From assembly GCA_016876035.1 (NCBI GenBank), contig VGOE01000003.1, forward strand, positions 1-62,933: 62,933 bases of DNA. The letters are read 5' to 3'. This DNA comes from Chloroflexota bacterium (GTDB lineage Bacteria > Chloroflexota > Dehalococcoidia > UBA2247 > RBG-13-53-26). This document shows, one piece after another, positions 37,512 through 60,458 of the stretch (the stretch's first letter is position 1; each line of letters starts with the position of its first letter). The notes under the pieces are model-generated. The model was given only the letters and a program-made list of their open reading frames with translations. It had not been told where the DNA came from and did no database searches. A program made the translations under genes and the position numbers.

Positions 37512-39500
37512 GTGGATACAAGCCAATATGATGAGCCTAAGATCGGGGTTTACGTTTGTCATTGCGGCACCAATATCGCCGGCAGTGTTGATGTAGGACA
37601 GGTAACTGAATTTGCCCGAGGGCTGGAAGGGGTAGTAGTATCCCGAGATTATAGTTTTGTGTGCTCTGATCCAGGGCAGAAGCTGATCCGGGAGGACATC
37701 CTTCAGCTAGGAATCAATCGGGTTGTGGTGGTAGCCTGTTCCCCTCGTCTACACGAGCAGACATTCCGCGGTGTATTGAAGGAGAGCGGGCTTAACCCCT
37801 ATATGCTGCAGCAAGCTAATATCAGAGAGCAGTGTTCTTGGCTTCATGAGCCAGGGGAGTCGGCCACTGAGAAGGCGAAGAGGTTGGTTAGAGCAGCAGT
37901 GAAGCGAGTTGCGCTGCATCACCCTTTGGAGCAGAGAGCAGTGCCAATTTTCCCCGCTACTCTGGTGGTCGGAGGCGGTATTGCTGGTATTCAGGCTGCT
38001 CTAGAGATCGCCAATTCCAACCACCTGGTGTATCTAGTGGAAAGGGAGTCCAGCATTGGAGGGCATATGGCGCAGTTCGACAAGACCTTCCCCACTCTGG
38101 ACTGCGCCGCGTGTATCCTCACCCCTAAAATGACTGACGTTGCCCGTCATCCTTACATCAGGCTGTTAACCTACAGCGAGGTGGTTGACATCTCAGGGTA
38201 TATAGGCAACTTCACCGTCAAGATCAAGCGTAAGGCGCGCTACGTGAATGAGGAAAAATGCACCGGCTGTGGTATTTGCCAGGAGAAGTGTCCGTGGACG
38301 ACATTAAGTGAGTTCGAGGTCGGCTTGAGTTTGAGGAAGGTCATTTATACCACTTCACCTCAAGCAGTGCCCAACATACCTGTTATTGATCGTGAGCGTT
38401 GTGTTTACTTCTCCAAGGGAACCTGCCGCGCCTGTGAACGCTTCTGTGAACCAAAAGCTATCAATTTCAAGCAGGAAGATATGTTGATAGAGCTGCAAGT
38501 TGGCTCTGTTATAGTGGCTACCGGATACGATACCTTTGAGCCTACCCGCGTCACGCAGTACGGCTATGGTAACTACCCCAACCTTTTCACCAGCTTGGAG
38601 TTCGAGCGGATGTGCAGCCCGTCCGGGCCAACCGGCGGTAAATTGAAACTAGCAGACGGTCGGGAACCACAGAGCATGGCCATTATCCATTGTGTAGGCA
38701 GCCGAGATAAGAATTTCAATGCCTACTGTTCTCAGATATGCTGTATGCATGCCCTGAAGTATTCCCACCTGTTCAAGGAGAAGACCGGTGGCGATGTCTA
38801 TCAAATGTATATTGATATGCGTTGCACGGGGAAAGGGTATGAAGAATTCTATGATCGGGTTCAGAAAGAGGGAGTCAACTTCGTCAGGGGCAAGGTAGCC
38901 AATGTCACTGACCGTGCCCTTGCACCTGAGGAGGAAGGAAAACTGATTGTTACCTGTGAGGATACCCTGTTGGGCAACATCGTCCGTGTCCCGGTAGATA
39001 TGGTGGTATTGTGCATAGCTGTGGAGCCGCGCAGGAATGCTGAGCAGCTAGCCCAAATATTTCGTTTGGGACGGGGCCAGGACGGGTTCTTCCTAGAGCG
39101 ACACCCGAAATTGGATCCGGTGGCTACCATGTTCGAGGGTGTATTTGTAGCGGGGTGTTGCCAGGGTCCTAAAGATATACCTCATACAGTGGCTCAAGCC
39201 TCAGCGGCCGCTGCTCGGGCTCTGGCTATGATTGCCCGAGGCAAAGTGGAAATTGAAGCAGTGACTGCTTCTGTTGATGAAAAGCGGTGCTCAGGATGCC
39301 GGTTGTGCAACGCACTCTGCCCATATGAAGCTGTCTCCTTTGATGAAGATGCCAAAGTGTCGCGGGTGTCTCAGGTTCTTTGTAAGGGGTGTGGTACATG
39401 TGCTGCGGCTTGCCCGAGCAACGCTATCTCCGTCCAGAACTTCACTCCAGCCCAGATCACAGCAGAAATTGAGGGACTGCTAGCCACGGTGAACGTCTAG
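37512..39500 (+). CDS. hdrA: Heterodisulfide reductase subunit A
   Basis: CHCGTNIAG, ACSPRLHE, NIREQCSW, GGGIAG, DKTFPTLDCAACIL, inserted 2x[4Fe-4S], SLEFER, HCVGSR...CS..CC, C-terminal 2x[4Fe-4S]. Confidence 0.95.
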   Translation: MDTSQYDEPKIGVYVCHCGTNIAGSVDVGQVTEFARGLEGVVVSRDYSFVCSDPGQKLIREDILQLGINRVVVVACSPRLHEQTFRGVLKESGLNPYMLQQANIREQCSWLHEPGESATEKAKRLVRAAVKRVALHHPLEQRAVPIFPATLVVGGGIAGIQAALEIANSNHLVYLVERESSIGGHMAQFDKTFPTLDCAACILTPKMTDVARHPYIRLLTYSEVVDISGYIGNFTVKIKRKARYVNEEKCTGCGICQEKCPWTTLSEFEVGLSLRKVIYTTSPQAVPNIPVIDRERCVYFSKGTCRACERFCEPKAINFKQEDMLIELQVGSVIVATGYDTFEPTRVTQYGYGNYPNLFTSLEFERMCSPSGPTGGKLKLADGREPQSMAIIHCVGSRDKNFNAYCSQICCMHALKYSHLFKEKTGGDVYQMYIDMRCTGKGYEEFYDRVQKEGVNFVRGKVANVTDRALAPEEEGKLIVTCEDTLLGNIVRVPVDMVVLCIAVEPRRNAEQLAQIFRLGRGQDGFFLERHPKLDPVATMFEGVFVAGCCQGPKDIPHTVAQASAAAARALAMIARGKVEIEAVTASVDEKRCSGCRLCNALCPYEAVSFDEDAKVSRVSQVLCKGCGTCAAACPSNAISVQNFTPAQITAEIEGLLATVNV

Positions 39501-39527: not shown

Positions 39528-39980
39528 GTGGCTGAGTTTGAACCCAAGATAGTTGCCTTTTTATGCAACTGGTGCTCCTATGCCGGAGCAGATTTGGCAG
39601 GGACTTCGCGCATGAAGTGCCTGCCTAATGTGATTTCTATTCGACTTATGTGCAGCGGAGGACTGGACCCTACTTACGTTTTGAAGGCATTCAAGGAAGG
39701 GGCTGACGGGGTCCTGGTTTGCGGTTGCAACCCTGGTGATTGCCACTACCTTGAAGGGAACTACAAAGCATTGCGGCGTGTCTCCTTGCTGCAGAGAATG
39801 CTGCCACACTTCGGCGTCGAGCCGCGGCGTCTCCAATTGCACTGGGTGTGCGCTTCCTGTGGCGATGAATTTGTTACTGTCGTTAACGAAATGACTAATG
39901 AATTGAAGAGGTTGGGACCAATCAAGCGCGAGAGTTGGATGCCAGCAGCAGAGGAACATCATGCAATGGCACCGGGCTAA
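39528..39980 (+). CDS. mvhD: MvhD-type [2Fe-2S] subunit (copy 1, extra cysteines)
   Basis: FEPKIVAFLCNWCSYAGAD, MCSG, GADGVLV.GC.PGDCHY..GN. Confidence 0.92.
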   Translation: MAEFEPKIVAFLCNWCSYAGADLAGTSRMKCLPNVISIRLMCSGGLDPTYVLKAFKEGADGVLVCGCNPGDCHYLEGNYKALRRVSLLQRMLPHFGVEPRRLQLHWVCASCGDEFVTVVNEMTNELKRLGPIKRESWMPAAEEHHAMAPG

Positions 39981-56908: not shown

Positions 56909-57250
56909 ATGGAGAAATGGATTCTGAATGTGGAGACCAATTGTGCCGACTCCGCAAGAGAGAAGGAGTTCAACGAATGGTACGACAAAGTTCATCTGCC
57001 TGATATCTTGCACATACCGGAGGTGGTGCGAGCTTCCAGATATGAATGCGCCGATCCTTCCGAAGGGCAGGCGAAGTTTCTGGCCATATACGAAATAGAA
57101 ACCAAAGACCTCGGTGAGACGATGGCAGCGTTGGGAGAGCGATTGGAGGCGATAACGAGAGAGGGTCGGATGTCTGATCTATGTATACTTGTCGGCACAC
57201 GCATGTACAAGCAGATAACGGCTCCAGTTCAGAAAAGAAAGGCCAAGTAG
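56909..57250 (+). CDS. EthD/DUF4286-like dimeric alpha-beta barrel protein
   Basis: EFNEWYDKVHLPD.L..P.V..A.RY, FLAIYEIE; SD AGGAGG. Confidence 0.75.
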   Translation: MEKWILNVETNCADSAREKEFNEWYDKVHLPDILHIPEVVRASRYECADPSEGQAKFLAIYEIETKDLGETMAALGERLEAITREGRMSDLCILVGTRMYKQITAPVQKRKAK

Positions 57251-57308
57251 GAAGAAGGCAATATCTCTGAGAGTAGTCCGAAGTTCTACGAGGCACCGGT
57301 GGGGTGGG

Positions 57309-57365
57309 GCGCTCGAGTCTGCTCATAATTGAGCGTCTTAAGGTCAGGGTTCAAGTCCTGCGTGT
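57309..57365 (+). other. Degenerate tRNA-like remnant (CAT loop and T-arm-like)
   Basis: CTCATAA loop and GGTTCAAGTCC T-arm, but no D-arm or acceptor stem and broken stems. Confidence 0.25.
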
Positions 57366-57627
57366 TTGAGCTTTTTCAAGAGAGCTGGCATAGGGATGAC
57401 ATCCCTATCCTGAAGCTTACACCCGGAGGTGCACCACAGTATACTATCACCCCTGCTTGAAAAGCCAAGAAGCCATAGCCGGGAATGCGGGGCCGTGGAC
57501 GGCAGTAGCAAGCCTTGGTAATATCGATCTCGTGTTGCTATTGCCGTATCGCTGATGTTCTTTGGCGGATCACATGCGCGCATGGACAACAAGCGATGAC
57601 CCGTGATATTGTCGGAGTTGATAAGCT

Positions 57628-57819
57628 ATGCTTCTCCTGATGGAAGTGCTAACACCAGAGGTGGGCCGGAATCCTGACGAGCTGATCCGGCAGGTCAAGG
57701 CTTTCCAGCACGTGCGGGCCACGGGCGAAGTGACTCCTTCGGGTTGGCAACCGGGACAGATCACGCTCAAGCCAGGGCCAGCCCTTGTGGGCAGGGTCTG
57801 GGAGGTGTGGAAGCCATAG
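57628..57819 (+). pseudogene. Peroxiredoxin (AhpC/PrxU-like) C-terminal fragment
   Basis: MEVLTP.VGRN..E.IRQ..AFQHVR.TGE.TPSGW.PG..TLKPGP.LVG.VW..WK; in-frame TAA at 57622 and no N-terminal peroxidatic domain. Confidence 0.7.
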
Positions 57820-58036
57820 CCAACTTAATGCCTGTCTGATAACAGTTTCGTCCGGCATAGTAATTGGTACCGGGGTGAGAATCAGGACGGACCACGCGGA
57901 GTGGCGAACCTGGTCTTTACAGCCGTACTGGTGTCTCCTTGGGTTGTCCGATCTGTGGCCGTGGTCTACGTTTTTCTAATCTATGGGTTTTACTGGCTGG
58001 TAGGTCCAAGATTGGCTGATTCTTTCCGATTGGTGT

Positions 58037-58855
58037 CTAGGCAAGGAAGTTTAACAACTGTGATCCAACCCATAGTGATGGCACCAATATCAATGCAAGT
58101 TTGTGCACCCGGTCAGCATCAGATGTCTGCTTCCTGTCCACATAGTAGAGAGCAACCAGCGTGCTCACAAGCGATGCTGTTAGGGCAAAGTAATTCAGCA
58201 GCATGAAGCGGTCACCCAAGGTGAGGTAACCCAGTGGGGGCAGCGATGAAGTCATATTCAAATGGAAGAGGACAGCACCGGTGAATGCCCCCGTATTCAA
58301 AGTCAATCGTGGAATAATCTTGTCCGGCGACAAGACTAGAGACAGCAGGCCAACTATGGCAATAACCAGCGCCGGAAGAATGGTTTTCAAGATAGCAGCT
58401 AATGGCGAGCGGTGGATTTGAATGCTGAAGACATAGCGCGAAAAAGTGGTACCATAGGGTTCATAGTAGTGCTCGTCAAGGTCAGCTTTCCACCCGTCAA
58501 TCGCCCATCCGGCAATCTTCACTGACGGGTCTAAGCCACTATCCTCGAGGCTTACCTGATATACTTGAGTGCGGGCCGTTTGCTCTTTATCCTCCAGTTC
58601 GATAATCAGGTTGTGGTGGTCAAAGGGGTAACGGCTGAGATTCAAATTGCTGGCAAGAGAAGCCTGAATCCGGTAGAATTTCTCTGTCGGCTCATCAACC
58701 GACTTGTCTATCGATGTGGCGCGACCATTGGAGAACTCGAAGTTCCCGGGGCTAGAGGGCTCATCAGAAGAAAAGGAGAGGTAGAAGTCAATGGTAAAAG
58801 CTCCTGTGGATGTATCCAGCTTGCCAACATTGAGAACATAAACCCCCACTTTCAC
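58037..58855 (-). CDS. Pentameric ligand-gated ion channel (GLIC/ELIC-like); signal peptide separated by in-frame TAG
   Basis: V.VGVY, F..DFYL, YPFD, GW, M1 Pro (ILPAL), M2-M3 LPPLGYLT..D, four TM helices; upstream in-frame signal to about 59029. Confidence 0.85.
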   Translation of the reverse strand: MKVGVYVLNVGKLDTSTGAFTIDFYLSFSSDEPSSPGNFEFSNGRATSIDKSVDEPTEKFYRIQASLASNLNLSRYPFDHHNLIIELEDKEQTARTQVYQVSLEDSGLDPSVKIAGWAIDGWKADLDEHYYEPYGTTFSRYVFSIQIHRSPLAAILKTILPALVIAIVGLLSLVLSPDKIIPRLTLNTGAFTGAVLFHLNMTSSLPPLGYLTLGDRFMLLNYFALTASLVSTLVALYYVDRKQTSDADRVHKLALILVPSLWVGSQLLNFLA

Positions 58856-59240
58856 AACCTTCGGTCCCTGTTCGGGCTGGTTGAGAGAGAGCTGTGTTCC
58901 ATTGTCGGACGGAACCTACGCTTCCGTAGGCTCGAGACAACCTGCGAGACATATGAGGGAACTGAATATGCTAAAGAGAAACAGGAGCGCTAAGACCTGT
59001 GGGAGTCGTTTCGTTCTAATATTTGCTACCGAAGATGAAATATATACTGCTGGATGGGTGAGTGTCAAAATACAAATCGCCGGCTAGCTACACCAGCGGC
59101 TATCACTAATATATAATTGTGCTGTTGGTACAGTAGATTATTGCCTTGAAAACTGCTGAGGGAAGACCCTTTCAATGCTTGACCGGTAGTCCTGCGCACC
59201 AGATAGGATGAAAGGGACGACATAGATAAGGAGGTAGAAG

Positions 59241-60458
59241 ATGGCCATGGCACTCGAAGGTATAAGAGTTCTGGACTGGACACAGTTCCAGCAGGGCCCG
59301 GTGTCAACCATGCTTCTGGGCGATTTGGGTGCTGATGTGATCAAGATAGAGGATCGCGTTACCGGCGACCGAGGGAGGGGTGTGATGAGGGTGGGTGGGA
59401 GCAGTGTAGCCGAAAGCTTGACGCAACGGGACCCTTATTTTGAGATCGGGAACCGGAACAAGAGAAGCATCACCCTCGACCTGAAGAAGGACAGAGGCAA
59501 GGAAATCGTCTACAAGCTCGTGGAGAAGTCGGACGTTTTCGTTCACAACTTTCGTTCTGATACGGTGGAAAGACTGGGGCTGGACTACAAGACTCTCTCT
59601 AAGCACAGCAGGCGGCTGATATATGCCCAGGCCTCGGGATGGGGATCGAAAGGCCCAGACAAGGACGCCCCAGGCTTCGACTCCGCTGGACTGGCCAGAT
59701 CCGGCTTCTGGACGCTCCTCACTGAGCCGGGCCGTGATCCGCAGTATCCCCAGGGAGGGATAGCCGACCAAATGGGAGCCATGACGATGGCCTTCGGCGT
59801 ACTGGCTGCACTGGTACACAGAGAGAGAACGGGAATGGGACAGAAGGTAGATGCCTCAATACTAGGAGGAATAAGTTTTCTGGTGGCCTATCCCTTGACT
59901 TTCTACACCATGTGTGGCATTCCTCCGCTGTTTGTTAACAGAGATACCCCCTGGAACCCGCTTTATAACCAATACAAGTGCAGTGACGGCAGATGGATTG
60001 CAGTGATTCTTGTGCCACCAGACCAGTATTGGCCTGCTTTCTGTAAGGCGATGGGGCTTCAGGAACTGGAGACAGACCCTCGCTTCGACAGCATAGATAC
60101 CAGGCAGAATAATTCACAAGAGTTGATCAGAATTCTGGATGAAAGATTCGCCACCAGGCCAAGTCAGGAATGGGCAAAGATGCTGCGTCAGCACGACCTT
60201 GTGTTCTCAATCATCAACACCGTTGAGGAATTCGCTAATGACCCTCAGTCCCTGGCGAATGAATACGTCACTGAGTTCGATCATCCCGTTTGGGGTAGGA
60301 TCAAGGTGGCAGGTTTTCCCGTCGATTACAGCAAGACCCCTTGCTCCATAAGGAGGGAGGCCCCCGAGTTTGGCCAGCATACCGAGGAAGTACTTAGGGA
60401 TGTATTGGGCTATACTTGGGAGGGAATCAGCCAGTTGAAAGATGAGGAGGTCATTTAG
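59241..60458 (+). CDS. Family III CoA-transferase (CaiB/BaiF)
   Basis: LEGIRVLD....GP....LGDLGADVIKIE, NRNKRSITLDLK, conserved Asp (GIADQMG), APEFGQHT. Confidence 0.93.
   Translation: MAMALEGIRVLDWTQFQQGPVSTMLLGDLGADVIKIEDRVTGDRGRGVMRVGGSSVAESLTQRDPYFEIGNRNKRSITLDLKKDRGKEIVYKLVEKSDVFVHNFRSDTVERLGLDYKTLSKHSRRLIYAQASGWGSKGPDKDAPGFDSAGLARSGFWTLLTEPGRDPQYPQGGIADQMGAMTMAFGVLAALVHRERTGMGQKVDASILGGISFLVAYPLTFYTMCGIPPLFVNRDTPWNPLYNQYKCSDGRWIAVILVPPDQYWPAFCKAMGLQELETDPRFDSIDTRQNNSQELIRILDERFATRPSQEWAKMLRQHDLVFSIINTVEEFANDPQSLANEYVTEFDHPVWGRIKVAGFPVDYSKTPCSIRREAPEFGQHTEEVLRDVLGYTWEGISQLKDEEVI

Follow-up and report, generated by a model that had tools for sequence, protein, structure and literature searches.

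An interrupted minus-strand gene in the window (the whole 62,933-nt stretch of DNA that was analysed) is very probably a very young pseudogene of a Dehalococcoidia-family pLGIC. Relative to its homologs the gene carries two lesions, each of them a single transition: the start codon ATG has become ACG, and a Gln codon has presumably become TAG. Both belong to the consensus sequence of a natural lake population, and the 292 codons that follow the second lesion are open to the end. We regard the locus as an ordinary pseudogene, and not as a novel type of channel or a case of recoding.

Translation of the minus strand from 59098 to 58037 gives a single frame, which reads VANIRTKRLPQVLALLFLFSIFSSLICLAGCLEPTEA up to an amber codon and then VPSDNGTQ...KVVKVGVY...NFLA up to the terminator. 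The amber codon is the sole break in this frame, and the residues that directly follow it are VPSDNGTQLSLNQPEQGPKVVKVGVYVLNVGKLDT. The mechanical list of open reading frames (ORFs) divides the frame into a 272-aa ORF, from GTG 58855 to TAG 58037, and a 50-aa ORF upstream of it, from TTG 59068 to TAG 58916. Followed upstream past TAG 58918-58916, the 272-aa called ORF (58855-58037) extends in frame into the 32 codons of a signal peptide. An earlier note made from the letters of this DNA had reported the in-frame upstream peptide, the amber codon and a LAGC tetrapeptide at 58948-58937, and it was correct to the base. The GTG at 58855 matches the V of the VKVGVY motif conserved in the homologs, and NCBI places the start at a GTG two codons further on, which gives a product of 270 aa. 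The annotated GTG start is an annotation artefact, since it lies inside the conserved beta1 strand. The features of the gene are collected in Table 1.

Table 1. Features of the interrupted channel gene, in positions of the window.
Feature	Position	Strand	Basis
Sigma-70-like promoter of the channel gene, TTGACA-N18-TATATT	59039..59068	-	Promoter scan, 11/12; conserved at homolog loci
ACG, mutated start codon, ancestral ATG	59012..59014	-	Opposite the homolog ATG; ATG unitig in run X7
Signal peptide, 32 codons, (M>T)KRLPQVLALLFLFSIFSSLICLAGCLEPTEA	58919..59014	-	Translation; homologous signal peptides in relatives
LAGC, lipobox-like tetrapeptide within the signal peptide	58937..58948	-	Fits [LVI][ASTVI][GAS]C
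TAG, premature amber codon in place of the Gln at +1 of the signal-peptidase site	58916..58918	-	Gapless codon alignment
Intact pLGIC body, 292 codons: variable linker, beta-sandwich ectodomain, four TM helices	58040..58915	-	
GTG, gene-caller start of the 272-aa protein P0001	58853..58855	-	Inside the conserved beta1 strand
YPFD, Pro-loop signature ('Cys-loop' position), no flanking cysteines	58619..58630	-	Invariant in the 58-sequence alignment
M1	58405-58334	-	
M2	58318-58250	-	
M3	58219-58136	-	
M4	58126-58043	-	
TAG, terminator of the gene	58039-58037	-	

The channel family is a genuine family of prokaryotic pLGICs of the GLIC-like kind, on the combined evidence of a sequence profile, an AF2 model and a Foldseek search. 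A profile of 58 members matched GLIC in the PDB with E-values of 1.4e-28 to 1e-26, over the ectodomain and M1-M4 and at ~21% identity. The AF2 model, built on the 58-member alignment (pLDDT 93.5, pTM 0.83), has nine strands that form a beta-sandwich and then four helices, and the top 50 Foldseek matches in the PDB were all pLGICs, with TM scores of 0.77-0.83 (0.78-0.83 for GLIC). Taken alone, the window protein reached 13.9 bits with the Pfam model PF02932 (Neur_chan_memb), against a cut-off of 28.1 bits, and did not match PF02931 (Neur_chan_LBD); among the 58 family members, PF02931 was matched by 34 and PF02932 by 27 (E<0.01). The Pro-loop residues Y96-P97-F98-D99 and the M1 proline P181 are invariant in the 58-sequence alignment, and the former motif pairs with the YPFD of GLIC. 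The assignment to the pLGIC type in the earlier note thus agrees with profile, fold and structural matches. Its wording 'Cys-loop-type' is too broad if taken strictly: cysteine is entirely absent from the 292 residues of the mature sequence, and the channel is therefore not strictly a 'Cys-loop' one. Of the features that define Cys-loop receptors sensu stricto, the two cysteines 13 residues apart that flank the beta6-beta7 loop are missing, and only the YPFD Pro-loop motif is there.

A search of a large protein database returned ~390 homologs, most of them ~325 aa long and from Dehalococcoidia and Chloroflexota, and many of the matches span 95-98% of the read-through query. When mature domains were compared, the 60 closest relatives were 62-82% identical to the window protein, and nearly all were 315-335 aa long; the few relatives with a named source derive from Chloroflexi, Dehalococcoidales or SAR202 MAGs. 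GTDB genomes hold copies in Dehalococcoidia and Dehalococcoidales at 69-74% identity, as well as remoter ones in DPANN and Methanosarcinales archaea. The entries of this family are labelled 'hypothetical protein' in all sources, and no consistent synteny was found when the neighbourhoods of the homolog loci were examined. As for characterised channels, GLIC (the proton-gated pLGIC of Gloeobacter violaceus; PDB 3eam/4hfi), ELIC, sTeLIC and DeCLIC have the same architecture, namely a signal peptide, a beta-sandwich ectodomain and M1-M4, and they are also alike in their very short M3-M4 loop, their YPFD Pro-loop and the lack of Cys-loop cysteines. Compared with GLIC and other prokaryotic pLGICs, however, the family is distant and uncharacterised and has a slightly shorter ectodomain, and the window copy appears to be genetically inactivated. 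Within the Dehalococcoidia/Chloroflexota pLGIC clade (P0002-P0059), the window copy has the same precursor length, the same layout of promoter, leader and start, and the same type of signal peptide, AxA↓Q (the arrow marks the signal-peptidase site); it differs in having ACG for ATG, TAG for Gln, and LAGC where its nearest relative has AGW.

A homologous signal peptide is found at the N-terminus of practically every full-length relative. These sequences begin with M-[KR]-[KR]- and continue with a hydrophobic core, usually V/A-x-A and then Q/E/N, a variable linker of 15-25 residues, and (G)P-x-V-K-V-G-V-Y. Of the 102 N-termini that could be anchored, 89 contain a hydrophobic run of 10 residues or more. 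Tasneem et al. likewise described an N-terminal signal peptide in all of the bacterial pLGICs that they found (PMC549065). In the window signal peptide a basic n-region is followed by a long h-region, and the c-region closes with T-E-A, a -3/-1 site of the signal peptidase I type. Its closest homolog, P0002, has the same 53 codons before VKVG and can be aligned without a gap, at ~40% identity over the 53 codons by our own count; the upstream peptide is therefore not a chance ORF.

Some relatives have been deposited without a signal. For P0010 (L016), P0052 (L017) and P0063 (L018), the DNA contains in each case an ATG further upstream in the same frame, together with the whole of a signal peptide, so that these are mis-called starts for which a downstream codon was chosen. 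We thus rejected the proposition that signal-less homologs exist, as only one locus, L019, is truly broken. Its gene, P0058 (388-1310), comes from another metagenome and has frameshifts towards both ends, where the signal peptide meets the linker and again inside M3; it is either an independent pseudogene of the same pLGIC family or a product of indel errors in the contig. These results bear on several statements of the earlier note. The need of an export signal is borne out by the N-terminal signal found across the family and by the survey cited above, and both translation and homolog alignment confirm that an in-frame amber codon severs the signal from the body. Homologs starting at the KVGVY region without a signal had been named there as the observation that would speak against it; those called so have a full signal upstream in frame.

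In the gapless alignment with P0002, the stretch LAGCLEPTEA, the amber codon and VPSDNGT fall on TAGWLGPVAAQSQSGNDT, and the TAG lies opposite CAA (Gln) in L004. Gln is a recurrent +1 residue after the AxA site in the family (VAA↓Q, VQA↓Q, ALA↓Q), encoded by CAA or CAG in the homologs. The direction of the mutation was presumably from Gln to TAG.

The ancestral start codon is the one that now reads ACG (59014-59012), exactly opposite the ATG of the homologs. The start context is ATG AGA CGG CTT in L004, ATG AAA CGA in L006, or ATG CTG CGA, and in the window it is ACG AAA CGA CTC. When the region 5' of the gene was compared between the window and the loci of P0002, P0008 and P0007, TTGACA was invariant, the -10 box (TATAT) was conserved and a short leader followed; the promoter scan identified the window element as sigma-70-like, with 11 of 12 matches. 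The earlier note had listed GTA 59029 and ATT 59020 as the only start-like codons; neither of them is the ancestral start, and TTG 59068, a canonical start-like codon, is in frame as well. We considered this TTG as a candidate for the true start and rejected it, as the homologs start ~18 codons later; translation from it is unlikely because it is part of the -35 hexamer of the conserved promoter.

A low-abundance related strain in lake sample X7 retains the start ATG. In this run, a 178-nt unitig at 2.6x, which covers 58937-59089, differs from the window at three positions: G>A at 59013 of the plus strand, which makes ATG of the ACG in the coding strand, CCA>CCG, which is synonymous, and one change in the leader. 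The unitig diverges abruptly just after the LAGC codon and continues on the coding strand as TGTGCTTCAATGGAAGTCGGACAAT. If these 25 unaligned bases lead back into the window sequence at all, they do so with a length difference of 11 nt, and the ATG-bearing strain may itself be frameshifted or have another linker.

The body of the gene is as conserved as that of intact homologs, and its inactivation would therefore be very recent. Among the 25 closest homologs, 116 columns reach a conservation of 95% or more. The window body departs from them at one (V>L), and intact homologs treated alike depart at 0-11, most of them at 0-3. No further stop or frameshift is present in the 292 codons. A less likely alternative is that some selection still acts on the body. 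Two observations speak against the pseudogene: the undecayed body is also compatible with continued selection on some product, and the lesions both fall within the initial 10% of the gene, which is somewhat surprising if decay is purely neutral. Our run search found no RNA runs containing the stretch. Ordinary young bacterial pseudogenes similarly combine the loss of a start with a nonsense mutation in a frame that is otherwise open, here with a peroxiredoxin fragment as a neighbour. Nothing essential sets the window locus apart from them; its lesions are fixed in the consensus of several samples from one lake population. Recent pseudogenisation, one of the explanations offered in the earlier note, is thus consistent with the two lesions seen against intact homologs and with the undecayed body. 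The two others it offered are not supported: there is no repeat tract for phase silencing, and for both phase silencing and programmed read-through the second lesion removes the start codon, TAG being moreover a normal stop in the window.

The following course of events would account for these observations. The ancestral gene would have been transcribed from the sigma-70-type promoter with a leader of ~25 nt, and its precursor of ~325 aa would have begun with a cleavable signal peptide, joined by a short variable linker to a beta-sandwich ectodomain of the GLIC-like kind, with four TM helices behind it. The lineage that is dominant in the lake samples would then have acquired two transitions within the first 33 codons. 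ATG>ACG would have abolished the start codon, and CAG or CAA>TAG would have put a stop in place of the Gln that directly follows the signal-peptidase site. Each lesion by itself would block the synthesis of an exportable precursor. As for a product initiated at the internal GTG, it would begin inside beta1, with no signal to move the ~170-residue ectodomain across the membrane. Loss of function is therefore the probable outcome.

Four other readings of the locus were weighed, and even together they are unlikely. As MAG consensus sequences can contain errors, the TAG and the ACG might have arisen as errors of sequencing or assembly, or as artefacts of a minor allele in one MAG. We judged the reality of the lesions at the consensus level, from assembled contigs. 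The Logan contigs of five lake-water metagenomes, at 19-34x, have zero differences from the window across 58000-59300, both lesions included, and the independently assembled JGI contig L001 matches the window at 100% identity along 1.5 kb. A narrower search of DNA runs gave the same runs again. Moreover, both changes are substitutions, not homopolymer indels. This identity in five metagenomes at such depth means that the lesions are not an assembly error, which was rejected, and that they represent the consensus of the natural lake population; an artefact of either kind is extremely unlikely. The reading frame conserved on either side of an in-frame TAG would also be expected if TAG were a sense codon, by way of pyrrolysine or of a genome-wide amber reassignment. 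However, TAG terminates 13 of the 36 Pfam-supported ORFs of the window at normal protein length, among them the channel gene itself at the usual C-terminus of the family, and the homologs have Gln at the site rather than a conserved TAG. The window was scanned and contains no tRNA, no Rfam family, no read-through or recoding RNA element and no pyl-like gene, and no other domain-supported gene in it is split by TAG. Its sole pair of same-frame ORFs separated by a TAG (37512-39500 and 39528-39980, plus strand, with TAG plus 27 nt between them) encodes an HdrA-like Fe-S flavoprotein and a complete MvhD (FlpD; positions 1-123 of 123 of the Pfam model); both look complete and are adjacent genes rather than a recoded fusion. 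Recoding of TAG, whether genome-wide or local, was thus rejected, as TAG is a frequent genuine terminator here. From the window and the homolog comparison, TAG is not avoided, there is no pyl gene or suppressor tRNA, and the TAG is not conserved at the site. The probability of a sense codon is practically negligible.

The two remaining readings assume that some product is still made. A truncated, signal-less protein of 270-272 aa, started at GTG 58855 or 58849, might have retained some function. Its ORF is open and conserved and is annotated in this form in three sources, and a GAAGG motif lies a few bases upstream of the GTGs. Yet these GTGs encode conserved V residues of the beta1 motif VKVGVY, the apparent Shine-Dalgarno motif corresponds to the conserved GP-K/A-V coding sequence of the homologs, and no intact homolog starts there, those called so being mis-called. 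Furthermore, it is established that a pLGIC ectodomain cannot reach the outside without an export signal (see also PMC549065). We regard such a protein as a slim possibility. Low or conditional expression of the full precursor would instead combine initiation at ACG 59014 or ATT 59020 with amber read-through by a suppressor or near-cognate Gln-tRNA, possibly followed by lipid anchoring at LAGC. The frame is perfectly kept across both lesions, the body is fully conserved, the promoter is intact, and LAGC is a textbook lipobox. Nevertheless, two inefficient events would be needed in series, TAG is the most used stop of the window and ends this very gene, no tRNA or read-through element is present in the window, and all other family members have a plain ATG and Gln, which leaves this a very slim possibility. 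It is tempting to speculate that a throttled lipobox-bearing precursor is produced through a non-AUG start and read-through, or that on/off alleles, i.e. the ATG and the ACG/TAG strains, represent a selected polymorphism. The former would make the protein the first lipid-anchored prokaryotic pLGIC, with expression dependent on suppression, but we consider either highly improbable.

Under the preferred reading of a young pseudogene, the question of whether the ancestral protein was lipidated can still be asked. At the end of the h-region, the LAGC tetrapeptide fits the lipobox pattern [LVI][ASTVI][GAS]C, with the Cys at position 26 of the precursor. In common with the precursors of bacterial lipoproteins (Lgt/LspA substrates), the window sequence combines a basic n-region with a hydrophobic core and the lipobox L-A-G-C; unlike in those precursors, the Cys is not conserved in the orthologs, and a conserved signal peptidase I site follows 6 residues later. 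The search for homologs bearing such a lipobox, suggested by the earlier note, gave one strict and eight broad matches among 102 N-termini, and the column itself is not conserved. It holds Cys in five close homologs, with ILGC, ILGC, VLGC and FGC in P0004, P0005, P0007 and P0008, respectively, and Trp in the nearest relatives (AGW in P0002, LGW in P0003). The homolog at L016 reads VLEC, and a Glu at -1 is incompatible with a lipobox. In contrast, the AxA↓Q site of the signal peptidase I type is kept 6-9 residues downstream in all of these relatives, also in the Cys-bearing ones, and corresponds to T-E-A and the former Gln in the window. Processing in the family thus looks like that by signal peptidase I. 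Lipidation of the ancestral window protein is a weak idea and is no family trait, and the description 'lipid-anchored' in the earlier note is not sustained. Neither lgt nor lspA was found among the Pfam-annotated ORFs of the window, and our literature search for lipoprotein-type pLGICs found nothing relevant.

The importance of the locus beyond annotation is small. The 270-272-aa 'hypothetical protein' in public databases should be flagged as what it very probably is, the body of a pseudogenised pLGIC, and several intact relatives have been deposited with mis-called starts that remove their signal peptides. Dehalococcoidia hold a large, well-conserved and entirely uncharacterised GLIC-like clade, of which intact members such as P0002 are reasonable targets for structural and functional work. 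The locus also appears to be a clean example of a very recent gene loss that is fixed in a lake population, with a co-occurring strain that keeps the start codon.

As for the surroundings of the gene, a 63-aa ORF at 57628-57819 on the plus strand matches only the C-terminal domain of 1-Cys peroxiredoxins (PF10417), and in the three plus-strand frames of 57200-57830 no AhpC/TSA (thioredoxin-fold) domain could be detected upstream of it (57250-57630). This ORF looks like the remnant of a second gene, directly beside the broken channel gene. On the other side, a family III CoA-transferase gene (59241-60458, plus strand) adjoins the channel gene and is divergent from it. A CoA-transferase gene also adjoins the channel gene at the SAR202 homolog locus (L017 1-787), on the same strand, and the adjacency may be a coincidence because the orientation differs between the two loci. 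The divergent intergenic region that the channel and CoA-transferase genes of the window have in common contains a terminator-like element, i.e. a GC-rich hairpin followed by a T-rich run (59078-59098, minus strand), immediately upstream of the -35 box. The window is otherwise ordinary chromosome, with genes for DnaK, ClpB, DnaB, ribosomal protein L9, trehalose synthesis, and MscS-like, acetone-carboxylase-like and Hdr/Mvh-like proteins. The HdrA-like/MvhD pair mentioned above lies within an Hdr/Mvh/[NiFe]-hydrogenase-like cluster at ~37.5-47.5 kb. Finally, the plus-strand segment 14524-23574 encodes an MscS-like channel, a trehalose-6-P synthase, a trehalose phosphatase, a fusion of an MscS-like protein with DUF5752, a TreT-like glycosyltransferase and a P-type cation ATPase, and this cluster looks like an osmotic-stress island.
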